DNA of 54,561 bases from Escherichia coli (lineage in GTDB: Bacteria > Pseudomonadota > Gammaproteobacteria > Enterobacterales > Enterobacteriaceae): the NCBI RefSeq assembly GCF_003334785.1, contig NZ_QOWV01000022.1, one strand, 5' to 3'. Under the pieces are notes generated by a model. That model ran no database searches, was not told the DNA's origin, and worked only from the letters and a program-made list of their open reading frames with translations. A program made the position numbers and the translations under genes. Shown here piece after piece: positions 1 through 37,542 of this stretch. How positions within the stretch are numbered: position 1 is the stretch's first letter; every line of letters begins with the position of its first letter.

Positions 1-1
1 G

Positions 2-352
2 CGCAATGTCCGGGCAAAATCAGGTTTAAACCGTTCGATACTGGATCAGGGCTGGTATGAAATGCGCCGCCAGCTTGAGTACAAGCAGCTCTGGCGTGGC
101 GGTCAGGTGCTTGCTGTTCCGCCAGCGTACACAAGCCAGCGTTGCGCGTGCTGTGGTCATACAGCGAAAGAAAACCGCCTGTCACAAAGTAAATTCAGAT
201 GCCAGGTATGTGGATATACAGCGAACGCCGATGTAAATGGCGCTCGTAACATTTTAGCGGCGGGGCACGCCGTTCTTGCCTGTGGAGGGATGGTGCAGTC
301 AGGCCGCCCGTTGAAGCAGGAACCCACCGAAATGATTCAGGCGACAGCCTGA
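2..352 (+). CDS. IS200/IS605-family TnpB (OrfB)-like protein, C-terminal part only; 5' end lies before the window start
   Basis: Frame is open from nt 2 (..[29 protein letters not shown]..). The C-terminus carries a CxxC..CxxC zinc finger (CACCGH..CQVCGY) followed by ADVNGARNI, typical of the TnpB RuvC-III/Zn-finger region. Family assignment from memory. Confidence 0.55.
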
Positions 353-391
353 ACGTAGCAGGGATCCTCGTCCTTCAGGGCGTGGAGGATG

Positions 392-1063
392 TCAACAAAC
401 AGGTTGAATTAACTCCGCGCCCTGGTTTTTGACATTACCTACCGCGCGCGATACCGGGTGCCAGGTGAACTGGTTTGCTGGCACACAGCCGTTGGTAGCA
501 ATTTCTGATGCTTCTTTACCGCCAATCTCTTGCCGCATCCATTCCTGTGCAGCTTCTGGCGACAGAACCAGCGGGCGGCGGTCATGAATATCTACCAGAC
601 CCTGGTCTGCTGCTGCAGTGACAATTAAAAATCCTTCGGCTTTGTCACCGCGCTCAAACGGTGTGCTACCTATCGCGGCCATAAAAACAGGTTGTCCATC
701 AGCGCGATAGATAAAATAAGGCTGTTTTTTGTCGCCTTCTTTTTTCCACTCAAACCAGCCATCGGCAAAACAGATTGCCCGACCATGTTGCCAGAGCGGT
801 TTAAACATACGACTGGTGGCCGCAGTTTCTACGCGGGCGTTAATCAGCGGCGGTTTATCCCACCATCCGGGAGCATATCCCCAGAAAACCGGATCCAGAT
901 GAAGGTGTTCATCACGTTCACTGAGCAGAAGAACTTTGGTTCCCGGCGCGACGTTGTATCTGCCAATGGGTTCGGGATCGTAGGGAATATCGCGTTCAAT
1001 ATCTTCCGCGAGAAGCGCAAGGTAATCTTCACGCGTTTGGGATTGGGCAAAGCGTCCACACAT
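392..1063 (-). CDS. yedK: SOS-response-associated peptidase (abasic-site processing protein) YedK
   Basis: 223 aa beginning MCGRF (catalytic Cys2 of the SRAP family); position next to yedF/yedE matches E. coli synteny. Confidence 0.85.
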   Translation of the reverse strand: MCGRFAQSQTREDYLALLAEDIERDIPYDPEPIGRYNVAPGTKVLLLSERDEHLHLDPVFWGYAPGWWDKPPLINARVETAATSRMFKPLWQHGRAICFADGWFEWKKEGDKKQPYFIYRADGQPVFMAAIGSTPFERGDKAEGFLIVTAAADQGLVDIHDRRPLVLSPEAAQEWMRQEIGGKEASEIATNGCVPANQFTWHPVSRAVGNVKNQGAELIQPVC

Positions 1064-1169
1064 AGAAACCTCCTGAGATCATACTGAAAAGAATAGGAGA
1101 GGGGGCGGGTAAAATCTATGTGTCAGAGGCAACGATGTTCCCGCTGTGGGCCACAGCGGGAATGAGGGA

Positions 1170-1403
1170 TTACTTCTGAATTAAATAACGAATGGTCGGC
1201 CCGTCTTGCTGAATATCCAGCACCGTATAGCCGTGATTACGCGCATCCAGTGGAATATTATTGATCGACTGTGGACAGTCGCTCACCACTTCCAGGATTT
1301 CCCCTTTTTTTAACTGCGGCATCGCCTCAAGAGTTGCGACTGCCGGATAAGGGCAGGGTTCACCCACCATATCAAGGCGGTAATCAGGAACGATATTTTT
1401 CAT
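1170..1403 (-). CDS. yedF: TusA-like sulfurtransferase-family protein YedF
   Basis: 77 aa with the CPxP motif (GEPCPYP); 4-nt overlap with upstream yedE as in the E. coli yedEF operon. Confidence 0.8.
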   Translation of the reverse strand: MKNIVPDYRLDMVGEPCPYPAVATLEAMPQLKKGEILEVVSDCPQSINNIPLDARNHGYTVLDIQQDGPTIRYLIQK

Positions 1404-2605
1404 GCGATCTCCTTAGCAGTCTGCGGTGCCGCACGGCGGAAGAAGCGTTTTTCCCAGCCGATAATCAACATCAGCGCAGTAAACAACAGCAAATATGTCA
1501 CCAGCAGGCCACCCATCGGGCCAAAGGTTTTCAGCAGGTTGATTTTGTCCCAGTCGGTGGCCAGCGCCGGAGCGAAATCATCCCAGTAATACGCCAGAAT
1601 CGTTGAGCCGATCACGTTGCCCAGACCGACCCACCAGTAGTGCACCTGGCCTTCTACCGCGCGGTACATCCAGCCGGTTTCGCAGCCGCCTGCCAGCACG
1701 ATGCCAAAACCAAACAGTAAACCACCAATTACCGCGTTTGGTCCCGCCCACATGATTTTGGGTTCAACGCCTAACTGTACGTAACTGAAGATCCCGATGG
1801 CACTCACCGCCATACCAATAATGATTGCTTTCGCCATATGGGTACGTCCGGTGATCCACATATCGCGGAACGCTGAAGTAAAGCAGATTTGCGCACGTTC
1901 AATCAGTAAACCAAAGCCGACGCCAAACAGCATTGCCAGCCCCAGTTTGGGTTGGTTCATCGCCGTGAGCAGCGCCCAGCCCAGCATGCCGAAAAAGACC
2001 AGCATCCCGAGACGAAAACGACGCCGCGCCTGATCCGGTTTTTGCGTCAGCGGTGAGGCGGCAGAAACTTTCTGCATTTTCACGGGAATACGGAAGATGG
2101 GCAGCAGGGTAAAGCGCGCGCCAAACCATGAACCAATGGCAGTGGCGATGGCAAAGAACCAGGCATGCAGCGAGAACTGAGGAATGCCGGTAAAGAACGC
2201 CGCCAGGTTACAGCCCATTGCCAGACGCGCGCCAAAACCGGCGATAATGCCGCCAATAATGGCCTGCATAATGCGGATACGGCTGCGCGGCATGCGCAGT
2301 TTGACATTGTTGGCCCACAGCGCTGCGGCAAAGCAGCCGCCAAACATGCCGAGGATCATCATCCCGTCGATGCGGGTTAATGGCGATCCTTCCAGATGGA
2401 TAATTTTAAAATAACCCCACTCTTCAGCATGGACGCCAAACAGCTGCAGGAGCTGACCGCCCCAACGGGTAAATTCACCCGTGACAGCCCAAAAGGTGCC
2501 AGTAATGCCAAAATAGTAAGTGGAGAGAATACCCGCCGCGATGACCGCAGGGATGGGTGCCCAGAATTTAATCAACCAGGCGTGTTTGAATTGCTGCCAT
2601 GACAT
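1400..2605 (-). CDS. yedE: YedE/YeeE-family inner-membrane transporter (selenium/sulfur compound transport)
   Basis: 401 aa, highly hydrophobic multi-pass membrane protein; synteny with yedF. Confidence 0.8.
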   Translation of the reverse strand: MSWQQFKHAWLIKFWAPIPAVIAAGILSTYYFGITGTFWAVTGEFTRWGGQLLQLFGVHAEEWGYFKIIHLEGSPLTRIDGMMILGMFGGCFAAALWANNVKLRMPRSRIRIMQAIIGGIIAGFGARLAMGCNLAAFFTGIPQFSLHAWFFAIATAIGSWFGARFTLLPIFRIPVKMQKVSAASPLTQKPDQARRRFRLGMLVFFGMLGWALLTAMNQPKLGLAMLFGVGFGLLIERAQICFTSAFRDMWITGRTHMAKAIIIGMAVSAIGIFSYVQLGVEPKIMWAGPNAVIGGLLFGFGIVLAGGCETGWMYRAVEGQVHYWWVGLGNVIGSTILAYYWDDFAPALATDWDKINLLKTFGPMGGLLVTYLLLFTALMLIIGWEKRFFRRAAPQTAKEIA

Positions 2606-2788
2606 GAATGTAGCCTCTGAACTCAGAAGGTTTGAAACAAGAATCGCGAATCATACATCATGCAAATTTATTTTCGGGGTAATAATTCACAAAAATAATA
2701 GTTAGATCAAATTTCTCTCTGAACCTGGAAAGGCTGGCGACATCAGGGCTTTAATGCCACAATCCTCTTTTCTTCTCATGCAGGACGA

Positions 2789-3205
2789 ATGATGAAAAAA
2801 CTCGCAATTGCAAGCGCGCTCATGTTGCTGGCGGGCTGTGCCGAAGTCGAAAACTATAACAATGTCGTGAAAACCCCCGCGCCGGACTGGCTGGCGGGCT
2901 ACTGGCAGACCAAAGGGCCGCAACGTGCGCTGGTCAGTCCGGAAGCGATAGGCAGCCTGATTGTCACTAAAGAGGGCGATACCCTGGATTGCCGTCAGTG
3001 GCAGCGGGTGATTGCCGTGCCGGGCAAGTTGACATTGATGTCTGATGATCTCACTAACGTTACCGTAAAACGTGAGCTGTACGAGGTTGAGCGTGACGGT
3101 AACACCATTGAGTACGATGGTATGACGATGGAGCGTGTGGATCGCCCGGCGGCAGAGTGTGCCGCCGCGCTGGATAAAGCGCCGTTACCGACGCCACTGC
3201 CGTAA
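2789..3205 (+). CDS. yedD: Lipoprotein YedD
   Basis: 138 aa with signal peptide and lipobox (LLAGC); position between yedE and amyA. Confidence 0.75.
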   Translation: MMKKLAIASALMLLAGCAEVENYNNVVKTPAPDWLAGYWQTKGPQRALVSPEAIGSLIVTKEGDTLDCRQWQRVIAVPGKLTLMSDDLTNVTVKRELYEVERDGNTIEYDGMTMERVDRPAAECAAALDKAPLPTPLP

Positions 3206-3213
3206 TGAAATCT

Positions 3214-3231
3214 CCCCGGCTTGCCGCCGGG
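3214..3231. terminator. Hairpin (CCCCGGC-ttgc-GCCGGGG) between convergent yedD and amyA; likely bidirectional terminator
   Basis: Perfect 7-bp inverted repeat read directly in the sequence between two convergent stop codons. Confidence 0.5.
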
Positions 3232-3238
3232 GATGAAT

Positions 3239-4726
3239 TTAAATCACCTCTTCGATAACCCACACGCTGACGCTGCCGCCGTTGCAAAAGAAGGTCGCTT
3301 CGCCGTTTTCGTCGGTCACTACGCTCTCTTGCCGATTCCCCAGAAAATCACGCCAGGTTTTATTGCCGTAATTCTCTCCCAGATGAATGGTTTTTTCGCC
3401 ATCATCCCCGTTCGACATGACCACCACGCAGCCGGGATATTCGTCAGTGCCACTGCGGCTAAAGGCAATGCAGTTCGGATGGTCGAAAAATAATGTCTGT
3501 ACACCGTGGGCGAAACGCTGACGGGCGAGAATTAACTCATCAAGCTGTTCGATTATTGGCATATCTATCGGATAGGTTTGCCCGTCACCACCGACATCTT
3601 CGTAATGCGCACCGTAGAGGTCCGGATAGAACACCGAAGGAACGCCATTTTCCCGCAACAAAATTAGAGCATACGCCAGCGGTTTAAACCACGGTTCGAC
3701 CGGTGCTTCGAGGGCTTGCAATGGTTGGGTGTCGTGATTGGCAACGAGCGTCACGGCGTGGAAAGGATCGGCTTCCACTAATGTACCCGTGAAAATCTGC
3801 GTCATGTCGTAGTCGCGCCCCATGCGCGATGCTTCATGGAATTTCATCTGCAGCGGCGCATCGAACAGCATGGTTTTGCCTTCCACTTGATCAATATACG
3901 TTTGCAGTTTATCGACTTCATGCGACCAATACTCCGCCACAATAAACAGCGGCTTTGGCGCAACTTCCTGTACGTGTTCGATCCACTCTTTATAAAACCA
4001 CGCCGGAATATGTTTGACCGCATCAAGACGAAAACCGTCGCATTGCGTTTGTTCCATCACCCAGCGCGCCCAGTATTTAATCTCTTCCGTCACGGCATGA
4101 TTGCGAAAATCGATATTCTCGCCCATCAGATAATCGAAATTACCTAATTCATCATCAACCTGATCGTTCCAGCCTTCGCCGGTGTAGTCGTTAACAATTT
4201 TAAATATGCCATCTTCATCAGGGTTTTCGATATGGTCGATACCGCTAAAACATTTGAAATCCCAGATAAACTGTGAGTATTGCCCGGCACGGGCGGGGAA
4301 GGTGTAACGCGTCCAGCCTTCGCACTCAATGATTTCTTCATCAATTTGCGTACGGTCGTCAGCATTTACACGCTGCACGCGAATAGCTTCTTTTTCATCC
4401 GCGCCCATTTTGTGGTTGACTACCACGTCCAACAGCACCGCAATGTCATTACGTTTCAGAGCATCAATGGCGGCCAGCAGTTGTGCTTTATCGCCATATT
4501 TAGTAGGGATGCTGCCTTTCTGATCAAACTCACCTAAATCAAATAAATCATAGGAGTCGTAGCCGACCGAATACCCGCCCGATGCGCCTTTATAGGCGGG
4601 CGGCAACCAGACCATATTGATACCAATATCATTAAAACCGTCGGCGCGCTCGGCCAGTTCAGGCCAGAGCTTACCGCCTTCCGGGTAATACCAGTGAAAA
4701 CATTGTAACAGCGTGGGATTACGCAT
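3239..4726 (-). CDS. amyA: Cytoplasmic alpha-amylase (GH13)
   Basis: 495 aa, [16 protein letters not shown]-terminus and GH13-like motifs ([16 protein letters not shown]); synteny downstream of fliT. Confidence 0.9.
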
Positions 4727-4803
4727 TCTTCGACTCCATTCAAGGGGAACATTAGAAGCGTAGCCGTAATCGGATTATTCGCGAACCATTAGCTCGTTAA
4801 GAT

Positions 4804-5169
4804 TCACGAGAAGTTATCTTGCGGAGCCAGCACAAAGCCGCCCTGATCGCCATAGGCACTTAACACCGATTTTTGCACCGATGACTGACCGACCAGTTTC
4901 GCCAGTTCATCCATACGAATCTGTAATAACTGCTTTACCTTGCTTTCGTTGTCGAGAATCAGGCGCAGCATCGGGCGGAGCTGCTCCTGCATCGTGGTGG
5001 ACGGGGCAACCTCTTCAGTCAGGTGTGCTATCTCCTGCACCGCATTCACATACGCCATTTCGCTGGCGATGAGTTCGTCCCATTGTTCTTCCGTTGCCAG
5101 GCGTAACATGAGCTGGCTTTTTTCGACGAGTTGTTGCCAGGCGAAATACAAATGCGGTGCATGGTTCAT
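4804..5169 (-). CDS. fliT: Flagellar export chaperone / FlhDC anti-activator FliT
   Basis: 121 aa, last gene of the fliD-fliS-fliT arrangement; start overlaps the fliS stop. Confidence 0.85.
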
Positions 5170-5579
5170 CAGACTGGGTCCTGAATCAAAGAAGGGGAGA
5201 GTAACGACTCTTTCCAGGCATCGGCAATATTACGCATTAATGCTTCCACTTCTTCGACTGCGGAGACATCGTTGCGTAAATTGGCTTGCAGCAAGCGCCT
5301 GACCATATAGCTATAAAGAGCAATCAAGTTTTGGGTTAATTCGTCTTTGCTCTCTTCATCAAGACTCACCCGAAGTCCGTTCTCAATGATGTTGATCGCT
5401 TTTGACAAAGAGACGCCTTTGCCTTGCTGATTGTTGTCCTGCATAAACAGGCGCGCTCTAACCAGTGCGCTCAGCACTCCATCAAATAGCATGGTGACCA
5501 GCTGCTGCTGGCTGGCGCTCATTACGGCGCTTTCGACGCCAATTTGTGCATAGGCCTGGGTGCCTTTTGCCGCGTACAT
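5169..5579 (-). CDS. fliS: Flagellin-specific export chaperone FliS
   Basis: 136 aa, position between fliD and fliT. Confidence 0.9.
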
Positions 5580-5603
5580 GACCTGTCTCCCGATGAATAA
5601 TGA

Positions 5604-7010
5604 TTACTTGGAATTACTGTTGTTTTCGAACTGCTGCGTTAAGTAGCTGCTGGTGCTGTTTAACGAGGTCATTAAAACGTCCAGTTGGGTAAATTGTTCT
5701 TTGTAGCGCGCGACCTGCGCATCAATGCGATCGCTGGCGGCGTTGTAGTCTTTAGTTAATTTATTCAGTGTCTTACTAACGCCATCGGTAGCGGCTTTAA
5801 TAATGCCCGTTGTCGAAAGCCAACTGGTCAGGTTGCTGCCAATGGTGGTTGTGATGCCGGTTTTTTTACCATCGCCAACAATCAATGCACCTACGCCGCT
5901 GGCATCTTTTTTCAATGCAGCGGTGAGTTTGTCGGCATCCAGTTCCAGTTTGCCATCGCTGGGATCGGTCGTGATACCAATCTGCGCCAGCGTTTTATAG
6001 TTGGAAGAACTGACGGTATTACTCAGCATCGATTTCAACTGCGTCTGAATCGTTCGCAGCGTGGAGTCGCCGAGTAGTGCGCCATTGCTAGAATTCTGGC
6101 TATCAGCTCCCGCATCTACGGCGGTGTATTTGGTCAGGCTGCTGAAGGTATCTATTAGCGAGTTATAGGCATTCACCCAGTCTTTAATCGCCGTTTGCGC
6201 TTTGGAGGTGTCCTGAGTGATGGTCAGCGTCTGGTTGCCTGTGGTGACATCGTTCAGGTTCAGGGTGATGTTTTCCAGCGCGTCGCTGATGGTGTTGCTG
6301 CTGTTCTCAATGGCGACGTTATTGACCGTCAGCTGTGCATTCTGGGCGGCGACCGAGACCTCCATGCCGTTGCTGCTGGCACTGGCGTCATAGCCCATAA
6401 AACTTTGTAGCGCATCATCACCGCTGACCGAGAGTGTCATCGCATTGTCAAGGCCGGTGTCATTTGATGTGACTGACAGACGATATTCACCGTTACCCAC
6501 GTTAATGATGCTTGCGCTTACGCCTGCTTTTGCGTTGTTGATAGCATCACGGATCCCGCTTAAAGACGAGTTAGCCGCGCTGATATCAATGGAAATCGGA
6601 TCTTTGTCGCCGCCTTGTTGAATGGTGAGTTTGCTGTCGCTGGTGGCGATCGCCGTTTTTGTATCATCTCTGGTGGTGCGCGTGGTCAGGGTTTGCGCCT
6701 GCGCCAGATGGGTGACGCTGATGGTGTATTTCCCGGCGATGGCGTTACCCGCGGTGGTGGCACTGAACGCGGTGGTGCTGCTGGTGGTGCTGGTGGCGGA
6801 AAAAAGATCGGCTTTAGACAATGCAGTATTGGCGGTCTGGAAAGTCGTCAGCGCGCTTTTCAGCGTACCGTAGGCGCTAAGTTTAGCGGTAAACGACGAT
6901 TGCTGATTTGAAATAGGGGTTAGCGTCGCTTTTTGCGCGGCGGTGAGGCTATCAAGGATTGAACTTAAATCCAGGCCTGACCCGACTCCCAGCGATGAAA
7001 TACTTGCCAT
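5604..7010 (-). CDS. fliD: Flagellar filament cap protein FliD
   Basis: 468 aa, Ser/Thr-rich with conserved termini; divergent from fliC as in enterobacteria. Confidence 0.9.
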   Translation of the reverse strand: MASISSLGVGSGLDLSSILDSLTAAQKATLTPISNQQSSFTAKLSAYGTLKSALTTFQTANTALSKADLFSATSTTSSTTAFSATTAGNAIAGKYTISVTHLAQAQTLTTRTTRDDTKTAIATSDSKLTIQQGGDKDPISIDISAANSSLSGIRDAINNAKAGVSASIINVGNGEYRLSVTSNDTGLDNAMTLSVSGDDALQSFMGYDASASSNGMEVSVAAQNAQLTVNNVAIENSSNTISDALENITLNLNDVTTGNQTLTITQDTSKAQTAIKDWVNAYNSLIDTFSSLTKYTAVDAGADSQNSSNGALLGDSTLRTIQTQLKSMLSNTVSSSNYKTLAQIGITTDPSDGKLELDADKLTAALKKDASGVGALIVGDGKKTGITTTIGSNLTSWLSTTGIIKAATDGVSKTLNKLTKDYNAASDRIDAQVARYKEQFTQLDVLMTSLNSTSSYLTQQFENNSNSK

Positions 7011-7053
7011 GCGATTTCCTTTTATCTTTCGACACGTAAAACGAATACCGGGG

Positions 7054-7080
7054 TTATCGGCCTGAATTGCGCAAAGTTTA
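7054..7080 (-). promoter_or_regulatory. sigma28 (FliA) class-3 promoter for fliD-fliS-fliT
   Basis: On the minus strand reads TAAACTTT-N11-GCCGATAA, a perfect match to the sigma28 consensus, about 45 nt upstream of the fliD start. Confidence 0.7.
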
Positions 7081-7172
7081 CGTTTAATTGTTTTTTTTAA
7101 TAGCGGGAATAAGGGGCAGAGAAAAGAGTATTTCGTCGACTAACAAAAAATGGCTGTTTGTGAAAAAAATTC

Positions 7173-7199
7173 TAAAGGTTGTTTTACGACAGACGATAA
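7173..7199 (+). promoter_or_regulatory. sigma28 (FliA) promoter for fliC
   Basis: TAAAGGTT-N11-GACGATAA (one mismatch to consensus in the -10), about 75 nt upstream of the fliC ATG. Confidence 0.65.
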
Positions 7200-7275
7200 C
7201 AGGGTTGACGGCGATTGAGCCGACGGGTGGAAACCCAAAACGTAATCAACGACTTGCAATATAGGATAACGAATC

Positions 7276-8538
7276 ATGGCACAAGTCATTAATACCAACA
7301 GCCTCTCGCTGATCACTCAAAATAATATCAACAAGAACCAGTCTGCGCTGTCGAGTTCTATCGAGCGTCTGTCTTCTGGCTTGCGTATTAACAGCGCGAA
7401 GGATGACGCCGCGGGTCAGGCGATTGCTAACCGTTTTACTTCTAACATTAAAGGCCTGACTCAGGCTGCACGTAACGCCAACGACGGTATTTCTGTTGCG
7501 CAGACCACCGAAGGCGCGCTGTCCGAAATTAACAACAACTTACAGCGTGTGCGTGAGCTGACTGTTCAGGCGACCACCGGTACTAACTCTGAGTCTGACC
7601 TGTCTTCTATCCAGGACGAAATCAAATCTCGCCTGGAAGAGATTGATCGTGTTTCAAGTCAGACTCAATTTAACGGCGTGAATGTTTTGGCTAAAGATGG
7701 GAAAATGAACATTCAGGTTGGGGCAAATGATGGACAGACTATCACTATTGATCTGAAAAAGATCGATTCATCTACACTAAACCTCTCCAGTTTTGATGCT
7801 ACAAACTTGGGCACCAGTGTTAAAGATGGGGCCACCATCAATAAGCAAGTGGCAGTAGGTGCTGGCGACTTTAAAGATAAAGCTTCAGGATCGTTAGGTA
7901 CCCTAAAATTAGTTGAGAAAGACGGTAAGTACTATGTAAATGACACTACAAATAGTAAGTACTACGATGCCGAAGTAGATACTAGTAAGGGTGAAATTAA
8001 CTTCAACTCTACAAATGAAAGTGGGACTCCTCCTACTGCAGCGACGGAAGTAACTACTGTTGGCCGCGATGTAAAATTGGATGCTTCTGCACTTAAAGCC
8101 AACCAATCGCTTGTCGTGTATAAAGATAAAAGCGGCAATGATGCTTATATCATTCAGACCAAAGATGTAACAACTAATCAATCAACTTTCAATGCCGCTA
8201 ATATCAGTGATGCTGGTGTTTTATCTATTGGTGCATCTACAACCGCGCCAAGCAATTTAACAGCTGACCCGCTTAAGGCTCTTGATGATGCAATTGCATC
8301 TGTTGATAAATTCCGCTCTTCTCTCGGTGCCGTTCAGAACCGTCTGGATTCTGCCATTGCCAACCTGAACAACACCACTACCAACCTGTCTGAAGCGCAG
8401 TCCCGTATTCAGGACGCCGACTATGCGACCGAAGTGTCCAACATGTCGAAAGCGCAGATCATCCAGCAGGCCGGTAACTCCGTGCTGGCAAAAGCCAACC
8501 AGGTACCGCAGCAGGTTCTGTCTCTGCTGCAGGGTTAA
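7276..8538 (+). CDS. fliC: Flagellin (H antigen)
   Basis: 420 aa; conserved N-terminus ([17 protein letters not shown]) and C-terminus ([12 protein letters not shown]) with an AT-richer variable central domain. Confidence 0.95.
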
Positions 8539-8581
8539 TCGTCCTAACCTGATTAACTGAGACTGACGGCAACGCCAAATT

Positions 8582-8682
<101 letters not shown>

Positions 8683-8712
8683 CATAAAGCGCAATTTGTC
8701 AGCAACGTGCTT

Positions 8713-8737
8713 CCCCGCCACCGGCGGGGTTTTTTCT
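8713..8737 (+). terminator. Rho-independent terminator (CCCCGCC-accg-GCGGGG + T-run)
   Basis: GC-rich hairpin followed by TTTTTTCT, read directly. Confidence 0.6.
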
Positions 8738-8824
8738 GCATGGAATTTACCGGTAACCCCCAAATAACCCCTCATTTCACCCACTAATCGTCCGATTAAA
8801 AACCCTGCAGAAACGGATAATCAT

Positions 8825-8832
8825 GCCGATAA
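8825..8832 (+). promoter_or_regulatory. GCCGATAA sigma28-type -10 element upstream of fliA (autoregulated promoter candidate)
   Basis: Exact GCCGATAA 26 nt upstream of the fliA start; no good -35 at canonical spacing, so this is tentative. Confidence 0.3.
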
Positions 8833-8857
8833 CTCATATAACGCAGGGCTGTTTATC

Positions 8858-9577
8858 GTGAATTCACTCTATACCGCTGAAGGTGTAATGGATAAACACT
8901 CGCTGTGGCAGCGTTATGTCCCGCTGGTGCGTCACGAAGCATTGCGCCTGCAGGTTCGACTGCCCGCGAGCGTGGAACTTGACGATCTGCTACAGGCGGG
9001 CGGCATTGGGTTACTTAATGCCGTCGAACGCTATGACGCCCTACAAGGAACGGCATTTACAACTTACGCAGTGCAGCGTATCCGTGGCGCTATGCTGGAT
9101 GAACTTCGCAGCCGTGACTGGGTGCCGCGCAGCGTGCGACGCAACGCGCGTGAAGTGGCACAGGCAATAGGGCAACTGGAGCAGGAACTTGGCCGCAACG
9201 CCACGGAAACTGAGGTAGCGGAACGTTTAGGGATCGATATTGCCGATTATCGCCAAATGTTGCTCGACACCAATAACAGCCAGCTCTTCTCCTACGATGA
9301 GTGGCGCGAAGAGCACGGCGATAGCATCGAACTGGTTACTGATGATCATCAGCGAGAAAACCCGCTACAACAACTGCTGGACAGTAATCTGCGCCAGCGG
9401 GTGATGGAAGCTATCGAAACGTTGCCGGAGCGCGAAAAACTGGTATTAACCCTCTATTACCAGGAAGAGCTGAATCTCAAAGAGATTGGCGCGGTGCTGG
9501 AGGTCGGGGAATCGCGGGTCAGTCAGTTACACAGCCAGGCCATTAAACGGTTACGCACTAAACTGGGTAAGTTATAA
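8858..9577 (+). CDS. fliA: Flagellar sigma factor sigma28 (FliA)
   Basis: 239 aa with sigma70-family regions 2 and 4; synteny fliA-fliZ-tcyJ. Confidence 0.9.
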   Translation: MNSLYTAEGVMDKHSLWQRYVPLVRHEALRLQVRLPASVELDDLLQAGGIGLLNAVERYDALQGTAFTTYAVQRIRGAMLDELRSRDWVPRSVRRNAREVAQAIGQLEQELGRNATETEVAERLGIDIADYRQMLLDTNNSQLFSYDEWREEHGDSIELVTDDHQRENPLQQLLDSNLRQRVMEAIETLPEREKLVLTLYYQEELNLKEIGAVLEVGESRVSQLHSQAIKRLRTKLGKL

Positions 9578-9622
9578 CGTCAGTAAATGCCGCACTTTAA
9601 CTTTGACTACCAGGAGTTCTTA

Positions 9623-10174
9623 ATGATGGTGCAGCACCTGAAAAGACGGCCATTAAGCCGCTATCTTAAAGACTTTAAACACAGCCAGACCCATTGCGCG
9701 CATTGCCGTAAATTACTCGATCGCATTACCTTAGTTCGCGACGGCAAAATAGTGAATAAAATCGAGATTTCCCGCCTGGACACGCTGCTTGATGAAAATG
9801 GCTGGCAAGTGGAACAACAGTCATGGGCGGCATTGTGCCGATTTTGCGGTGATTTACATTGCAAAACGCAGAGTGATTTTTTCGATATTATCGGCTTTAA
9901 GCAATTTCTTTTTGAGCAAACTGAAATGAGCCCAGGTACGGTGCGTGAATATGTCGTTCGTTTGCGCCGTTTGGGGAATCATCTACATGAGCAAAATATT
10001 TCCCTCGATCAGCTGCAGGACGGTTTCCTTGATGAAATCCTCGTCCCGTGGCTGCCCACCACCAGCACCAACAATTACCGCATCGCATTACGGAAGTATC
10101 AACACTATCAGCGTCAAACGTGTACCGGACTTGTGCAGAAATCCTCCAGCCTGCCTGCTTCTGATATATATTAA
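9623..10174 (+). CDS. fliZ: Flagellar regulator FliZ
   Basis: Likely start at MMVQHLKRRP (183 aa); the six-frame ORF extends upstream to 9587 but the shorter form matches the known length. Confidence 0.8.
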   Translation: MMVQHLKRRPLSRYLKDFKHSQTHCAHCRKLLDRITLVRDGKIVNKIEISRLDTLLDENGWQVEQQSWAALCRFCGDLHCKTQSDFFDIIGFKQFLFEQTEMSPGTVREYVVRLRRLGNHLHEQNISLDQLQDGFLDEILVPWLPTTSTNNYRIALRKYQHYQRQTCTGLVQKSSSLPASDIY

Positions 10175-10261
10175 ATAAGAATAAGATGTAGCGGAGTTGT
10201 TTTTGTGTTTACAAACAATGGCTCTACACTGCAAACAGACATAACAACATTCGGGGTGAAT

Positions 10262-12153
<1,892 letters not shown>

Positions 12154-12167
12154 CTCCGGGAACGCTC

Positions 12168-12836
12168 ATGCAAGAAAGTATACAACTGGTTATTGATTCC
12201 TTGCCGTTCCTGTTGAAAGGGGCTGGGTATACCCTGCAACTCAGTATCGGCGGCATGTTTTTTGGCTTACTACTCGGGTTTATTCTCGCGCTGATGCGCC
12301 TGTCGCCAATCTGGCCCGTGCGCTGGCTGGCGCGTTTTTATATCTCTATTTTTCGTGGTACGCCGCTCATCGCACAACTGTTTATGATCTATTACGGCCT
12401 GCCGCAGTTTGGTATCGAATTAGATCCCATTCCGTCAGCAATGATTGGTCTGTCGCTGAACACTGCCGCCTATGCCGCCGAAACGCTGCGCGCCGCCATT
12501 TCTTCTATTGATAAAGGTCAGTGGGAAGCCGCTGCCAGTATTGGTATGACGCCGTGGCAGACCATGCGTCGCGCGATTTTGCCACAGGCGGCGCGGGTGG
12601 CGTTGCCGCCGCTGTCGAACAGCTTTATCAGTCTGGTAAAAGATACGTCGCTGGCCGCGACAATCCAGGTGCCGGAGCTGTTCCGTCAGGCGCAGTTGAT
12701 TACCTCGCGCACGCTGGAGGTGTTCACCATGTACCTGGCGGCTTCGCTCATCTACTGGATCATGGCGACTGTGTTATCGACGTTGCAGAACCATTTTGAG
12801 AATCAACTTAATCGCCAGGAGAGAGAACCCAAATGA
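12168..12836 (+). CDS. tcyL: L-cystine ABC transporter permease TcyL (YecS)
   Basis: 222 aa hydrophobic permease; synteny between dcyD and tcyN. Confidence 0.85.
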   Translation: MQESIQLVIDSLPFLLKGAGYTLQLSIGGMFFGLLLGFILALMRLSPIWPVRWLARFYISIFRGTPLIAQLFMIYYGLPQFGIELDPIPSAMIGLSLNTAAYAAETLRAAISSIDKGQWEAAASIGMTPWQTMRRAILPQAARVALPPLSNSFISLVKDTSLAATIQVPELFRQAQLITSRTLEVFTMYLAASLIYWIMATVLSTLQNHFENQLNRQEREPK

Positions 12837-13585
12837 GTGCCATTGAAGTTAAGAACCTGGTGAAAAAATTCCACGGTCAGACGGTGCTGCACGGTATCGA
12901 CCTCGAGGTAAAGCCGGGCGAAGTGGTGGCAATTATCGGTCCGAGTGGTTCCGGCAAAACCACATTGCTACGTAGCATAAATCTGCTGGAACAACCGGAA
13001 GCGGGAACGATCACCGTTGGCGATATCACTATTGATACTGCACGTTCATTAAGTCAGCAAAAATCGCTGATTCGCCAGTTGCGTCAGCACGTCGGGTTTG
13101 TCTTCCAGAACTTTAATTTGTTTCCGCATCGTACGGTGCTGGAAAACATTATTGAAGGGCCGGTGATCGTCAAAGGCGAACCGAAAGAAGAGGCCACGGC
13201 GCGCGCTCGCGAGCTGCTGGCGAAAGTTGGGCTGGCCGGTAAAGAAACCAGCTATCCACGTCGTTTGTCTGGCGGTCAACAGCAGCGTGTTGCGATTGCG
13301 CGTGCGCTGGCAATGCGTCCTGAGGTGATTTTGTTTGACGAGCCAACGTCAGCGCTGGATCCAGAGCTGGTGGGCGAAGTCCTGAACACAATCCGCCAGC
13401 TGGCGCAGGAAAAGCGCACGATGGTGATTGTGACGCACGAAATGAGCTTTGCCCGGGATGTTGCGGACCGGGCGATTTTTATGGACCAGGGGCGGATAGT
13501 CGAGCAGGGGGCAGCAAAAGCGTTATTTGCCGATCCCCAGCAGCCTCGCACCCGACAGTTCCTCGAGAAGTTTCTGCTGCAATAA
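12833..13585 (+). CDS. tcyN: L-cystine ABC transporter ATP-binding protein TcyN (YecC)
   Basis: 250 aa with Walker A (GPSGSGKTT), ABC signature (LSGGQQQR) and Walker B (ILFDEPTSALD). Confidence 0.9.
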   Translation: MSAIEVKNLVKKFHGQTVLHGIDLEVKPGEVVAIIGPSGSGKTTLLRSINLLEQPEAGTITVGDITIDTARSLSQQKSLIRQLRQHVGFVFQNFNLFPHRTVLENIIEGPVIVKGEPKEEATARARELLAKVGLAGKETSYPRRLSGGQQQRVAIARALAMRPEVILFDEPTSALDPELVGEVLNTIRQLAQEKRTMVIVTHEMSFARDVADRAIFMDQGRIVEQGAAKALFADPQQPRTRQFLEKFLLQ

Positions 13586-13814
13586 TAAGAAAAAATCAGC
13601 CCCGACGATTCACCTGTCGGGGCGGGACGCCATTTCAAGCGTGATAAAACTGCTTAACAAATCAGCATAACTCATTAATAACATAAGAGAATGCGATGGC
13701 TTGCAAAAGTAATTCATTGCCTGAATAATATAAATTATATATAAATCTTATTTATGTGATAGTTTGAATTATCATTATAAATGATACTCACTCTCAGGGG
13801 CGTTGCGGTTTACT

Positions 13815-14537
13815 ATGCAGGATACGGATTTTTTCAGCTGGCGTCGCACGATGCTGTTGCGTTTTCAGAGGATGGAGGCCGCAGAAGAGGTCTACCATGA
13901 AATAGAGCTTCAGGCTCAGCAGCTGGAGTACGATTACTATTCGTTATGTGTTCGCCACCCGGTACCATTCACGCGACCTAAAGTGGCTTTCTACACCAAT
14001 TACCCTGAGTCGTGGGTTAGTTATTATCAGGCAAAAAATTTTCTCGCAATTGATCCTGTGCTGAACCCTGAAAACTTTAGTCAGGGCCATTTAATGTGGA
14101 ATGATGACTTATTCAGCGAAGCACAGCCATTATGGGAAGCCGCGCACGCACATGGTTTACGCCGCGGTGTCACTCAGTATTTAATGCTGCCAAATCGGGC
14201 GCTGGGCTTTTTGTCCTTTTCCCGTTGCAGCACGCGCGAAATACCCATTCTTAGTGATGAACTGCAATTAAAAATGCAGTTACTGGTGCGCGAAAGTCTG
14301 ATGGCTCTGATGCGTTTAAATGATGAAATAGTGATGACGCCAGAGATGAATTTCAGCAAGCGCGAAAAAGAAATTCTGAAATGGACGGCGGAAGGGAAGA
14401 CATCAGCAGAGATAGCGATGATTTTGTCAATCTCTGAGAATACGGTCAATTTCCATCAGAAAAACATGCAGAAAAAAATCAATGCACCAAATAAGACCCA
14501 GGTGGCCTGTTACGCGGCCGCTACTGGCTTAATTTGA
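13815..14537 (+). CDS. sdiA: LuxR-family quorum-sensing regulator SdiA
   Basis: Start at MQDTDFFSWRR gives 240 aa; autoinducer-binding N-domain plus C-terminal LuxR-type HTH (EILKWTAEGKTSAEIAMILSISENTV). Confidence 0.9.
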   Translation: MQDTDFFSWRRTMLLRFQRMEAAEEVYHEIELQAQQLEYDYYSLCVRHPVPFTRPKVAFYTNYPESWVSYYQAKNFLAIDPVLNPENFSQGHLMWNDDLFSEAQPLWEAAHAHGLRRGVTQYLMLPNRALGFLSFSRCSTREIPILSDELQLKMQLLVRESLMALMRLNDEIVMTPEMNFSKREKEILKWTAEGKTSAEIAMILSISENTVNFHQKNMQKKINAPNKTQVACYAAATGLI

Positions 14538-14564
14538 TCGCTTTTCTTTCTGCGTGCCAGATGC

Positions 14565-14600
14565 AAAAACCGGCTGAAAGGCACGCTCTCAGCCGGTTTT
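14565..14600. terminator. Bidirectional terminator between convergent sdiA and yecF
   Basis: AAAAACCGGCTGA...TCAGCCGGTTTT: hairpin with an A-run on one side and a T-run on the other. Confidence 0.6.
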
Positions 14601-14603
14601 ATA

Positions 14604-14828
14604 TTACTGACGGTAGGCTTGTTTAATTTGCTTAACCGTTTTGGAAAATACTGCAGCCTGGGTTTCGTCTTCGATCAGCGCAAGCTGTTTTTCCATCTTT
14701 AACATCACGCGGCCCGCGTCAGCTTGTCCCATCGCCTGCAGCATCAGCGTCAGCATCGCTTTCAGGCAGGAGACTTCATTTGCCAGTTCTTGATTATTCT
14801 CGGCAGTAGAAAAATCAGGCGTACTCAT
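14604..14828 (-). CDS. yecF: Small protein YecF (DUF2594)
   Basis: 74 aa; position between sdiA and uvrY. Confidence 0.75.
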
Positions 14829-15286
14829 TTATTTTCCTCGTCATGTTGCAATGAAAATTTGCGGTGAAAAATGTTAAGGCGGCGGAGTATACCATAAGCT
14901 TTGCTAAAAATAGCAGTGGTTGTTTTTTGAGCGTGATATCGGCAGTGCTATAAAATACGTTAATATAATGACCAATAAATATTTTTATCATGAATGTTTT
15001 TTGCCCGTATTGTTCGGGTTAATTAATGTTACATATTCAGCGGGCTGATTTTCATTTTTGCTGAATAAAGTCAATTTTTGTCACATTTCATCGTAGGGCT
15101 TACTGTGAAACGATCCGGTAAGCCGTTGGTGACGGGCGTGACCATAACTGTGGACAATCGAATTGACAAAAACGAGAGAAAAATCGAATACCCACCATTT
15201 TTAACGTTTCAAAGTTGCAATAAAAACCGCTAATATACGAATGACTAACTATCAGTAGCGTTATCCCTATTTCTGGAGATATTCCT

Positions 15287-15943
15287 TTGATCAACGTTCT
15301 ACTTGTTGATGACCACGAACTGGTGCGCGCAGGGATACGACGCATTCTGGAAGATATAAAGGGTATAAAAGTCGTCGGTGAGGCATCGTGCGGTGAAGAC
15401 GCCGTTAAGTGGTGCCGGACAAATGCCGTTGACGTGGTGCTAATGGACATGAGTATGCCGGGCATTGGCGGTCTTGAGGCGACGCGTAAAATCGCGCGTT
15501 CCACAGCTGATGTCAAAATCATCATGCTTACCGTCCATACAGAAAACCCTTTACCAGCGAAAGTCATGCAGGCCGGTGCTGCGGGCTACCTCAGCAAAGG
15601 CGCGGCTCCGCAGGAAGTCGTGAGTGCGATTCGTTCTGTCTATTCAGGGCAGCGTTACATTGCTTCTGACATCGCTCAACAAATGGCGTTAAGCCAGATC
15701 GAACCAGAAAAAACAGAAAGCCCATTTGCCAGTTTGTCTGAACGTGAATTGCAGATTATGCTGATGATCACCAAGGGCCAGAAGGTCAATGAGATCTCAG
15801 AACAGCTCAATCTCAGTCCGAAAACGGTGAACAGCTACCGCTATCGTATGTTCAGTAAACTAAACATTCATGGCGATGTTGAGCTGACTCACCTGGCAAT
15901 TCGCCATGGTCTGTGTAATGCGGAGACATTATCAAGTCAGTGA
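15287..15943 (+). CDS. uvrY: Response regulator UvrY (BarA/UvrY two-component system)
   Basis: 218 aa; receiver domain ([14 protein letters not shown], phospho-acceptor Asp context [10 protein letters not shown]) plus LuxR-type HTH; overlaps the uvrC start. Confidence 0.9.
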
Positions 15944-17772
15944 GTGATCAGTTTGACGCAAAAGCGTTTTTAAAAACCGTAACCAGCCAGCCAGGCGTTT
16001 ATCGCATGTACGATGCTGGTGGTACGGTTATCTATGTCGGCAAAGCGAAAGACCTGAAAAAACGGCTTTCCAGCTATTTCCGTAGCAACCTCGCTTCGCG
16101 CAAAACCGAAGCGCTGGTCGCCCAGATCCAGCAAATTGATGTAACGGTTACTCACACAGAAACCGAAGCGCTGTTGCTGGAACACAACTACATCAAACTC
16201 TATCAGCCGCGTTACAACGTTTTGCTACGCGATGATAAATCATATCCTTTTATCTTCCTGAGTGGTGATACCCACCCGCGTCTGGCGATGCATCGTGGTG
16301 CGAAGCATGCCAAAGGTGAATATTTCGGCCCGTTCCCGAATGGCTATGCCGTACGTGAAACACTGGCGCTACTGCAAAAGATTTTCCCCATTCGCCAGTG
16401 CGAAAATAGTGTTTATCGCAATCGCTCGCGTCCGTGTCTGCAATACCAGATAGGGCGCTGTCTGGGACCGTGCGTTGAAGGACTGGTGAGTGAAGAAGAA
16501 TACGCTCAGCAGGTCGAGTATGTGCGCCTGTTTTTGTCTGGCAAAGATGATCAGGTGCTTACGCAACTCATTAGTCGTATGGAAACTGCCAGCCAGAATC
16601 TGGAGTTTGAAGAAGCTGCACGTATTCGCGACCAAATTCAGGCGGTGCGACGCGTCACCGAAAAACAATTCGTTTCCAATACCGGCGACGACCTCGACGT
16701 TATTGGTGTGGCGTTCGATGCGGGCATGGCTTGTGTCCACGTATTGTTCATTCGTCAGGGCAAAGTGCTCGGCAGCCGCAGCTATTTCCCGAAAGTGCCT
16801 GGCGGTACGGAACTGAGCGAGGTGGTAGAAACCTTCGTAGGCCAGTTCTATTTACAAGGCAGCCAGATGCGCACCTTACCGGGTGAGATCCTGCTCGATT
16901 TTAATCTTAGCGATAAAACGCTGCTCGCCGATTCCCTTTCAGAACTGGCGGGACGCAAGATTAATGTTCAAACCAAACCTCGCGGCGATAGGGCGCGTTA
17001 TCTGAAACTCGCGCGCACCAATGCGGCGACGGCCTTAACCAGCAAACTTTCGCAGCAATCTACCGTTCACCAGCGACTGACCGCGCTTGCCAGCGTGTTG
17101 AAATTGCCGGAAGTGAAGCGGATGGAGTGCTTTGACATCAGCCATACCATGGGCGAACAAACCGTCGCTTCCTGTGTGGTGTTTGATGCTAACGGCCCGC
17201 TGCGTGCGGAGTATCGGCGCTATAACATTACAGGCATCACGCCGGGCGATGATTATGCGGCGATGAATCAGGTGCTGCGTCGGCGTTATGGTAAAGCCAT
17301 TGACGACAGTAAGATCCCGGATGTGATCCTTATCGACGGCGGCAAAGGCCAGCTTGCGCAGGCGAAAAATGTCTTCGCCGAACTGGATGTCTCATGGGAT
17401 AAAAATCATCCGCTGCTACTTGGCGTTGCCAAAGGAGCAGATCGTAAGGCTGGGCTGGAAACGCTGTTCTTTGAGCCGGAAGGTGAGGGATTTAGTTTGC
17501 CGCCAGATTCACCCGCGCTGCATGTTATCCAGCATATTCGCGATGAATCACATGATCACGCGATTGGCGGGCACCGTAAAAAACGGGCGAAAGTCAAAAA
17601 TACCAGTTCCCTGGAAACCATTGAAGGCGTCGGGCCAAAACGTCGGCAAATGTTGTTGAAATATATGGGCGGTTTGCAAGGTTTACGTAACGCCAGCGTC
17701 GAGGAAATTGCAAAAGTGCCGGGTATTTCGCAAGGTCTGGCAGAAAAGATCTTCTGGTCGTTGAAACATTGA
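15940..17772 (+). CDS. uvrC: Excinuclease ABC subunit C
   Basis: 610 aa; N-terminal GIY-YIG nuclease motif ([18 protein letters not shown]) and C-terminal helix-hairpin-helix region. Confidence 0.95.
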
Positions 17773-17828
17773 TGTCTCTGTAGCAACATAGGGGTAATCT
17801 TACTGACAACAGATAGTTACCCGTCATT

Positions 17829-18377
17829 ATGCAATTTAATATCCCTACGTTGCTTACACTGTTCCGTGTCATCCTTATCCCATTCTTTGTATTGGTCTTT
17901 TATCTGCCTGTCACCTGGTCGCCGTTTGCCGCCGCGCTCATTTTCTGCGTCGCGGCGGTGACTGACTGGTTCGATGGTTTTCTGGCACGCCGCTGGAACC
18001 AGAGTACCCGGTTTGGTGCTTTCCTTGACCCTGTCGCAGATAAAGTTCTCGTGGCTATCGCCATGGTGCTGGTAACCGAGCATTATCACAGCTGGTGGGT
18101 GACCTTACCGGCGGCAACGATGATCGCCCGTGAAATTATTATTTCTGCGCTACGCGAATGGATGGCGGAGTTGGGTAAACGCAGTAGTGTGGCTGTCTCT
18201 TGGATTGGGAAAGTGAAAACCACTGCCCAGATGGTAGCGCTGGCCTGGCTGCTGTGGCGTCCGAACATTTGGGTTGAGTACGCCGGTATTGCACTTTTCT
18301 TTGTGGCTGCGGTACTGACTCTGTGGTCAATGTTGCAATATTTGAGCGCTGCGCGTGCAGATTTGCTTGATCAGTGA
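17829..18377 (+). CDS. pgsA: CDP-diacylglycerol--glycerol-3-phosphate 3-phosphatidyltransferase
   Basis: 182 aa membrane protein with CDP-alcohol phosphotransferase motif ([16 protein letters not shown]). Confidence 0.9.
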
Positions 18378-18528
18378 TCGTTTCGGCGCAATTTTCAGCA
18401 AACGATCAAAAGTGGTGAAAAATATCGTTGACTCATCGCGCCAGGTAAGTAGAATGCAACGCATCGAACGGCGGCACTGATTGCCAGACGATAATAAAAT
18501 CAAGTGATTAACTGATTGCTTGATGAAT

Positions 18529-18604
<76 letters not shown>

Positions 18605-18657
18605 GTTTAAAAGACATCGGCGTCAGCGGATGTCTGGCTGAAAGGCCTGAAGAATTT

Positions 18658-18731
18658 GGCGCGTTAACAAAGCGGTTATGTAGCGGATTGCAAATCCGTC
18701 TAGTCCGGTTCGACTCCGGAACGCGCCTCCA
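18658..18731 (+). tRNA. cysT: tRNA-Cys (GCA)
   Basis: GGCGCGTTAACAAAGCGGTTATGTAGCGGATTGCAAATCCGTCTAGTCCGGTTCGACTCCGGAACGCGCCTCCA. Confidence 0.9.
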
Positions 18732-18743
18732 CTTTCTTCCCGA

Positions 18744-18830
18744 GCCCGGATGGTGGAATCGGTAGACACAAGGGATTTAAAATCCCTCGGCGTTCGCGCT
18801 GTGTGGGTTCAAGTCCCACTCCGGGTACCA
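18744..18830 (+). tRNA. leuZ: tRNA-Leu (UAA), long variable arm
   Basis: GCCCGGATGGTGGAATCGGTAGACACAAGGGATTTAAAATCCC...GGGTTCAAGTCCCACTCCGGGTACCA; the T-stem differs from the K-12 sequence as I recall it by two compensatory changes. Confidence 0.85.
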
Positions 18831-18871
18831 TGGGAAACATCAGAATAATCAAAGCAATAAGCAGTGTCGTG

Positions 18872-18896
18872 AAACCACCTCCGGGTGGTTTTTTTG
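18872..18896 (+). terminator. Rho-independent terminator of the tRNA operon
   Basis: AAACCACC-tccg-GGTGGTTT followed by TTTTT. Confidence 0.7.
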
Positions 18897-19072
18897 TGCC
18901 TGAAATTCATGTCCTGTGCATATCCTGTGCGCACGGGGTGCGATGAGCTGCAATCTTCAGCCTGGCAATGCCGAATCGAACGTGTCGCTTCCAGCATAGA
19001 GAACCAGGCCGCTTTGCCTGTTTTCCGGTACGCTTCCGGGAAGGGGGGGCCCGCTGAGCAAGCTGTAATGCT

Positions 19073-19813: not shown

Positions 19814-19893
19814 TCTTCAATACTGCCCCGTAATAAAAACACCTTCAGATATATATTATCTCCATGATATCAATCAGATACATGAGGATAAAT

Positions 19894-28657: not shown

Positions 28658-28703
28658 AGTTAACTCCGAAAAAATGCCGGGAGCTGTGTCCCGGCATAAA
28701 GAA

Positions 28704-29342
28704 TCAAGATTTAATAACATTTACTACAGATTTGAAAATATCGGTTTTGCGTGATTCATCATCTGCATGGATAAATGAAACGAGGTTCCTGCCTGCTTTA
28801 ATCAGGATGCCACGTTGCGTCTTTTCCACAGATGGGGTGACGCGTGCAGATAACAGACAATTTTCATGTAACTGAAGAAACTTTTTTGAGGCGTAGCCGC
28901 CATGCAGTCGGGCTTTAATTTCATTATACATATCATCAAGAGAACCGGGTTCTCCTGATTCACTCAATACCGGATAGCCCTTCTTATCAAAAAGGCTGAG
29001 GATAGATTTACCATCATGTTCGAACAAGGTAACACCGTAAATGTATTTCATTCGAAAGGTGAGGGCGTCGGTGGTGTAGATCTCCTCCTGACAACTGAAA
29101 TTTTTGAGACGCCTGGCTAATTCATTAAAAACAGCACGAGCAGTAGCCGTGTCCTGCAGGGTGTAGGTATAAAGTACGAAGCCATCTGTGCCGATGAGCT
29201 TTACTAAGTTGTCCATAATCGTGATAGCGAGAACTAATGCAAAGGACAGATATTTTTCATCGTTGTCTACAGCTGTGCTTGCTGATTCGGGAATAATGTT
29301 CAGTGCATTATTAGCGTTATTTTCCGTGTTCTTAGTAACCAT
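28704..29342 (-). CDS. Hypothetical protein (212 aa) in an operon with the excisionase-like gene and the polymerase
   Basis: ORF between the Xis-like gene and the polymerase, same strand, short gaps. Confidence 0.5.
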   Translation of the reverse strand: MVTKNTENNANNALNIIPESASTAVDNDEKYLSFALVLAITIMDNLVKLIGTDGFVLYTYTLQDTATARAVFNELARRLKNFSCQEEIYTTDALTFRMKYIYGVTLFEHDGKSILSLFDKKGYPVLSESGEPGSLDDMYNEIKARLHGGYASKKFLQLHENCLLSARVTPSVEKTQRGILIKAGRNLVSFIHADDESRKTDIFKSVVNVIKS

Positions 29343-37520: not shown

Positions 37521-37542
37521 CAAAGCGGAAGGGGGCTTGCTC

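Follow-up and report, generated by a model that had tools for sequence, protein, structure and literature searches.

The AT-rich interval at 7600-8300 of the window (the whole stretch of 54,561 nucleotides of Escherichia coli DNA analysed here) is almost certainly the hypervariable middle of fliC, the flagellin gene, in a strain that carries the H10 flagellar antigen. The region that bears the serotype difference is the only part of the gene that does not align with its K-12 counterpart, and it is embedded between conserved ends at the canonical fliC locus. An H10 flagellin gene with an AT-rich variable middle is a correct observation, and one that is already known and ordinary. The AT-richness itself turns out to be a general trait of the hypervariable part of fliC.

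The fliC gene and its locus

The open reading frame under study has an intact frame, encodes 420 amino acids followed by a stop codon, and ends with QQVLSLLQG (Table 1). In Pfam, Flagellin_N (PF00669) matches residues 5-140 (E = 9e-46), Flagellin_D3 residues 187-262 (9e-13) and Flagellin_C (PF00700) residues 333-418 (E = 9e-32). A phmmer search of the PDB with full-length FliC yielded the filament subunits of E. coli O157:H7 and K-12 as best matches (~3e-137). On every sequence criterion tested, the product belongs to the FliC/FljB-type flagellin family.

The surroundings are those of E. coli fli region III. On the minus strand the gene order is yedK-yedE-amyA-fliT-fliS-fliD; on the plus strand it is fliC-fliA-fliZ-tcyJ-dcyD-tcyL-tcyN-sdiA...uvrY-uvrC-pgsA, followed by the tRNAs Gly-Cys-Leu. 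The gene is found in the canonical fliC position, divergent from fliDST and upstream of fliAZ, with the layout annotated in K-12, UMNK88 and RM10740; fliA is intact at 8858-9577. Over positions 1-19000, the window has 100% identity with E. coli VE-F10 and with one further complete genome; the closest genomes are VE-F10 (NZ_AP027946) and NZ_OZ121069.

Table 1. Features of the fliC gene and its flanks in the window
Feature	Position	Strand	Description	Basis
Candidate sigma-28 (FliA) class-3 fliC promoter	7173..7199	+	TAAAGGTT - 11 nt - GACGATAA	Sequence match to consensus
fliC CDS	7276..8538	+	Flagellin, filament subunit, H10 allele	ORF, Pfam, PDB phmmer, genome matches
Conserved N-terminal part	7276..7767	+	aa 1-164, D0 + D1 helices	K-12 alignment; AF2 helices 7-35, 45-100, 106-129
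Hypervariable region	7768..8265	+	aa 165-330, H10-specific, predicted surface-exposed outer domain(s) (D2/D3)	No K-12 blastn alignment; Flagellin_D3; AF2
Conserved C-terminal part	8266..8538	+	aa 331-420, D1 + D0 helices + stop codon	K-12 alignment; Flagellin_C
fliC 3' UTR	8545..8735	+	Counterpart of K-12 small RNA FliX, REP-like palindromes	blastn
Intrinsic-terminator-like hairpin	8713..8739	+	CCCCGCC-ACC-GGCGGGG then TTTTTTCTGC	Consensus scan, pattern match

The candidate promoter upstream of fliC was recognized by comparison with the sigma-28 consensus, TAAAGTTT-N11-GCCGATAA. The fliD-fliC intergenic region in which it is found differs from that of K-12 at 4 of 265 positions. A scan for sigma-70 promoters gave no excess over shuffled sequences, as expected because fliC uses sigma-28. 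On the other side of the gene, the K-12 annotation places the ncRNA fliX directly downstream of fliC, and blastn aligned K-12 fliX with 191 nt of the window at 99.5% identity (8545-8735). This FliX counterpart is conserved though the upstream coding cores are unrelated. A search of the whole window with Rfam returned three tRNAs only, with no curated RNA family at fliC and FliX undetected. The hairpin listed last in Table 1 coincides in position with the end of the FliX counterpart, and is likely to mark the end of the fliC transcript. Given the canonical locus, the sigma-28-type promoter, the intact frame and the terminator, fliC is very probably the expressed flagellin of the strain.

The earlier note on this DNA gave K-12 flagellin a length of about 498 residues, which is accurate: fliC of K-12 MG1655 has 1497 bp and encodes 498 aa. 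A deficit of 78 aa relative to K-12 FliC is all that could be adduced, and nothing specific, for a non-functional flagellin, be it a pseudogene, a fliC disrupted by an insertion, or another flagellin locus subject to phase variation. We give this reading practically no credit, since natural fliC alleles span 349 to 605 aa, the identical protein occurs on at least 1000 contigs, and the gene harbors neither internal repeats nor mobile-element genes. A pseudogene or second flagellin locus was rejected on account of the intact frame, the complete terminal domains and the canonical place between fliD and fliA.

Other features of the window deserve mention. A low-GC (36-50%) genomic island occupies 18900-54561, directly after the tRNA Gly-Cys-Leu cluster (18529-18827), and from its gene content it looks like an anti-phage defence island. 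It encodes a tyrosine integrase (19864-21111), a second tyrosine recombinase (29675-30811) and a type I restriction-modification system (hsdM, 34131-35654; hsdS, 35644-36837; hsdR, 39397-42681) in which a PADLOC 'PDC-S12' gene is embedded (36837-37520). Two adjacent genes (44088-45542 and 45535-47577) have N-termini that match the PADLOC HEC-06/Orf5/SspE models, and a Hhe anti-phage helicase of 1809 aa (47752-53181) scores above the NCBIfam cutoff. For a number of large ORFs of the island, such as 26057-28720 (886 aa) and 37465-39327 (620 aa), no family was matched. The island is absent from UMNK88, 14EC029 and RM10740, where yecA-tyrP directly follow tRNA-Leu. At the opposite side of the locus, from fliE to yedK, UMNK88 and 14EC029 (L002/L003, 3464-5077) carry a degenerate IS200/IS605 tnpA, a frameshifted TnpB pseudogene and emrE-ybcL-ybcM. 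An intact TnpB is found at the same fliE-yedK site in C8, and the window begins just inside that area (~1-390).

A discrete H10 core between conserved ends

When the gene was aligned with the K-12 locus using blastn, collinear homology ended at 7767 and restarted at 8266. The stretch in between, a non-homologous core of 498 bp (aa 165-330), faces a core of 732 bp in K-12, and blastn found no alignment between the two. The interval 7600-8300 singled out in the earlier note thus comprises the core together with diverging sequence from the D1-coding part, ~170 bp to its left and 35 bp to its right. Divergence from K-12 builds up toward the core: mismatches per 100 bp rise through 0, 5, 8, 14 and 19 between 7282 and 7767, and on the other side 19 mismatches within 8266-8365 are followed by 1-4 per 100 bp. 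In total, 46/492 nucleotides of the N-terminal part differ from K-12 and 1/492 from RM10740; for the C-terminal part the figures are 22/273 and 2/273. The claim that fliC keeps conserved D0/D1 termini is borne out by the alignment of both ends with K-12 and by the presence of Flagellin_N and Flagellin_C. Identification of the AT-rich middle as the variable H-antigen region also stands, as it coincides with the sole stretch that cannot be aligned with K-12, located between those two domains.

Structure prediction agrees with this layout. The AF2 model has long terminal helices and an all-beta middle (aa 176-325) with block pLDDT values mostly of 78-92; mean pLDDT is 76, and only the D0 termini have low values, as is usual when a monomer is modelled. 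A Foldseek search with the model gave 7sn4 (E. coli O157:H7), 9go6, 9gnz and 1ucu (Salmonella FliC) as top matches, with E values of ~1e-28 to 1e-30. When the 166-aa core alone was searched against the PDB with phmmer, no match was found at E ≤ 0.01, and hence no solved close relative of the core. The full-length PDB hits are therefore driven by D0/D1. Residues 1-164 and 331-420 fold into the D0/D1 helical core, which, as in any enterobacterial flagellin, would serve export, FliS binding, filament polymerisation and recognition by TLR5. The all-beta middle of 166 residues (aa 165-330) probably forms an outer domain of D2/D3 type on the filament surface, carrying the serotype-specific epitope; its surface exposure and antigenicity are predicted from homology and from the model.

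The FliC of Salmonella enterica (1ucu, 1io1), the paradigm of the D0-D1-D2-D3 arrangement, has the same overall architecture, and phmmer pairs residues 2-262 of the H10 protein with Salmonella residues 1-281. The outer region of the H10 protein is, however, ~60-70 aa shorter, and our own reading is that the shortening is mostly at the expense of D2b. K-12 FliC (H48, 498 aa, filament 8cxm) shares with the window the locus, the promoter region and the FliX-bearing 3' UTR. Its D0/D1 ends align gaplessly with those of H10 with few residue differences, but its core has an unrelated sequence and 78 additional residues. At the DNA level, the K-12 fliC ends are 8-9% diverged, compared with ~0-2% in flanking genes.

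The serotype can be read from close relatives. The gene differs from that of UMNK88 by a single nucleotide (N69Y; 99.9% identity), and UMNK88 is an O149:H10 strain of ST100, phylogroup A (PMC8281228). The protein is identical to the FliC of RM10740 (WP_000079743.1), with 3 synonymous nucleotide differences, and RM10740 is O121:H10, B1/ST641 (PMC9729726). From these two matches, we conclude that the allele is H10 by sequence, the label resting on the published serotypes of two strains, which may be in silico calls. The same protein (UniProt Q9L9M3) is found in 14EC029, STEC17-190 and C8. The H10 genes of UMNK88 and RM10740 have the same length, 1263 bp, and the same locus, with 0-3 synonymous or single-residue differences. 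Hence, the proposal that the strain carries an H type other than that of K-12 proved right: the centre is clearly not identical to that of K-12 H48, as 7768-8265 cannot be aligned with the 732-bp K-12 core.

Among complete E. coli genomes, at least 25 contain a fliC that is 100% identical in nucleotide sequence over the 1263 bp, and a full-length match was found in 227/5426. Sensitive blastn with the core alone detected it in 228/5426, of which 226 had at least 95% identity and 2 had 80-90%; no relatives of the core at 65% to 80% identity were found among the 5426 genomes. Genomes of the H48 type were matched only with the conserved 5' end of fliC as query. Such a distribution is what Hu and Reeves (PMC7018530) have described for discrete 'HVR forms'. 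H10 is a discrete and probably old allele class, whose core has no detectable resemblance in DNA sequence to that of K-12 H48.

Some irregular cases were also detected. H110 (NZ_AP027783) gave a 71% partial match to the H10 core in 2 places, and a few genomes carry a diverged, partial or duplicated H10 core, one of them annotated only as 'flagellin'. Most hits of the core in a word-indexed protein search were fragments of genes, including a 105-aa 'hypothetical protein'. Diverged or partial H10 cores may represent fliC genes that have been disrupted, or variants within H10.

Outside the species, relatives of the core are scarce. The distant ones came to light only when 1.84 billion representative proteins were searched exhaustively with HMMER, which produced nine hits only. 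Among the full-length flagellins in this set, identity in the core is 42% in one of Citrobacter freundii (422 aa), 41% in one of Pantoea sp. (432 aa) and 35% in one of Cobetia sp. (426 aa). The fliC of Pluralibacter gergoviae (P0035) is closer: it encodes exactly 420 aa and aligns with H10 without gaps, with 61% identity in the core and 91-95% in the ends. Its locus (L009, with fliC at 6001-7263) is syntenic, amyA-fliT-fliS-fliD / fliC-fliA-fliZ-tcyJ..., and its flanks are ~76-82% identical in nucleotide sequence, but the core is too diverged to count as H10. The sequence comes from a metagenomic contig on which the neighbouring proteins match P. gergoviae proteins exactly. Two further contigs (L008 and L010) are linked with the P. 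gergoviae-type fliC entry.

Probable exchange of the H10 cassette among E. coli lineages

The earlier note had considered exchange by recombination probable, and the pattern of SNPs across strain backgrounds lends support to this idea. We compared 15-19 kb of the window with three H10 strains on another background (STEC17-190, C8 and RM10740, phylogroup B1). Relevant observations are the following:

(i). Overall, ~1.0-1.3% of sites differ between the three strains and the window. In fliD the differences amount to 32-33/1407 nt (2.3%), and in fliC to 1-3/1263 nt.

(ii). Against STEC17-190 and C8, an SNP-free tract extends from 7413 to 8596. The expectation for fliC is ~14-17 differences, which yields a Poisson P of ~1e-5 to 1e-6. 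Other SNP-poor tracts of 1-1.5 kb are present in the same pairs, however, and fliS, fliA and uvrY are nearly SNP-free; as the chromosome is locally mosaic, the Poisson test overstates how special fliC is.

(iii). K-12 presents the opposite situation. Its flanks are 97-100% identical to those of the window (0-2 differences in the fliA region, 4/411 in fliS), whereas its fliC has diverged by 8-9% in the ends and has an unrelated core.

The same cassette is therefore found on divergent backgrounds and different cassettes on similar ones, a combination predicted by homologous recombination whose crossovers fall within the conserved ends or close to them. This agrees with the accepted model of serotype switching, in which recombination occurs through crossovers in the conserved ends (PMC7018530). 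Exchange of the H10 fliC by recombination is thus supported by the comparison of genomes; we infer its history from the SNP pattern, which gives neither direction nor date. In mechanistic terms, homologous recombination of this kind would carry H10 from one E. coli lineage to another as a cassette.

The fliD gene (5604-7010) is unusually diverged for a core gene, with differences of ~2.3% from K-12 and 2.3% from RM10740; K-12 and RM10740 differ from each other by 1.7% in this gene, and the adjacent fliS shows 0-4 differences. The fliD allele is unlinked to the H10 fliC: the B1 strains carry WP_000146784.1 and UMNK88 carries WP_000146770.1. The UMNK88 fliD is a single nucleotide away from that of the window.

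One might argue that no exchange is needed, and that an H48-like ancestor within E. coli gave rise to the H10 core through accelerated divergence by point mutation, driven by diversifying selection that immunity or phages exert. The gradient of mismatches toward the core (5, 8, 14, 19 per 100 bp) could indeed resemble decaying constraint. Such an origin is, however, extremely improbable: the cores differ in length (498 and 732 bp) and have no alignable similarity, intermediates are lacking among the 5426 genomes if the 2 at 80-90% identity are set aside, the identical allele occurs on backgrounds whose fliD differs by 2.3%, and a collinear H10-like core exists in another genus. We consider the point-mutational origin effectively refuted by the unalignable cores, the absence of graded intermediates and the finding of the cassette on diverged backgrounds.

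Composition of the variable middle and its possible origin

The middle third of the gene had been described as AT-richer than the rest, which is correct: GC content is 41.1% in 7600-8300, compared with 50.6% in 7276-7599 and 54.2% in 8301-8538. The core proper (7768-8265) has 40.8% GC, distributed as 46/45/31% over codon positions 1/2/3. The contrast is concentrated in the third position, where G or C is found in 52/166 codons of the core (31%) and in 140/254 codons of both ends pooled (55%; Fisher P = 2.2e-6); GC1 and GC2 change little between the core and the ends. In neighbouring genes GC3 is 46-64%. When all 498-bp segments of the part of the window that is core chromosome (18.9 kb) were ranked, the core was among the lowest 2.5% in GC; other equally AT-rich segments of that length lie in and around the sdiA-yecF region.

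As the contrast between core and ends sits mostly at synonymous positions, amino acid content is not the explanation, and amino acid composition was rejected as the cause of AT-richness. In-situ hypermutation was also considered and rejected. The related claim of a middle rich in Thr, Asn and Lys holds in part. Threonine is about twice as frequent in the core as in the ends (12.7% and 6.7%), albeit with borderline significance (P = 0.054), and lysine is raised, but not significantly (8.4% and 4.7%; P = 0.15). Asparagine is not enriched (8.4% in the core, 10.6% in the ends). Measured against 15 neighbouring genes, it is rather the flagellin in its entirety that is rich in Asn and Ser.

We then asked how other alleles behave. 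Ten more fliC genes from diverse complete genomes represented nine distinct alleles of 349-605 aa, and eight of the nine were compared, alongside those of the window, K-12 and P. gergoviae. In 12/12 fliC alleles compared, K-12 included, GC3 of the middle (25-45%) was below that of both ends (52-78%). The K-12 H48 core has a GC3 of 26%, and the shortest allele (349 aa) is less extreme, with a middle GC3 of 45%. Because low GC3 in the middle is found in every allele, K-12 too, AT-richness is no sign of a differing H type. It is generic to the hypervariable regions (HVRs) of fliC and not specific to the strain; the difference in type from K-12 is told by non-alignability and length.

The comparison with P. 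gergoviae has a bearing on the cause. The H10-like core of this species has 41% GC and a GC3 of 35%, between ends with GC3 of 62% and 78%, in a locus of 58% GC; the core thus has 41% GC in this background as well as in one of 50% GC. An AT-rich core in so GC-rich a locus argues against the fading trace of one recent import and favours a persistent cause. A tentative interpretation, which we hold with less than even confidence, is that the H10 HVR lineage is common to enterobacterial genera and that the AT bias of HVRs is independent of host GC, suggesting a process intrinsic to the HVR over a foreign residue. Suppressed recombination between forms would remove GC-biased conversion and codon selection in HVRs; alternatively, the persistent cause might be a continual flux within a pool of AT-rich HVRs.

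A different explanation is that the AT-rich core was imported fairly recently from a low-GC donor outside E. coli, and that its foreign signature has not been ameliorated. A GC3 of 31%, compared with 55% in the ends and 46-64% in the neighbours, is what such an event would leave, and the H10 core does have relatives in other genera (P. gergoviae, 61%; Citrobacter freundii, 42%; Pantoea, 41%). Hu and Reeves place the origin of HVRs outside the species (PMC7018530), which also speaks for import. Yet the same low GC3 appears in 12/12 fliC alleles, a universal and persistent pattern that a one-off event does not account for. Furthermore, the P. gergoviae homologue is only 61% identical, which denotes a long separation, and nonetheless remains at 41% GC in a 58%-GC locus. 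Finally, no low-GC donor was found among the 1.84 billion representative proteins. We therefore regard recent import as unlikely.

Mutation in bacteria is AT-biased, and recombination and GC content are linked. On these grounds, low GC3 could be kept in place by population genetics: if recombination between forms is impossible, the core would escape GC-biased gene conversion and codon selection, and would drift to an AT-biased mutational equilibrium. The concentration of the contrast at third codon positions is in line with this explanation, as are its universality among alleles and its persistence in a high-GC host. Hu and Reeves, moreover, saw recombination only within HVR forms and cited Muller's ratchet (PMC7018530). 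There are difficulties, however: alleles do recombine as whole cassettes, the middle GC3 of 45% in the 349-aa allele is not obviously predicted, and selection on mRNA, translation speed or amino acid usage could contribute. In our judgement the explanation is plausible, but short of an even chance. It concerns composition only and is compatible with the reading of the gene as an H10 flagellin.

That reading has practical value, since it gives the source strain an H type and is useful for typing and epidemiology. Some 4% of complete E. coli genomes carry H10, which is common in porcine ETEC O149:H10. In biological terms, the gene illustrates the long-established architecture of flagellin, with conserved ends and a hypervariable surface middle, together with serotype switching, and it opens no new question. 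The H10-like form that crosses genera and the host-independent AT bias of the HVR are mildly interesting by-products.
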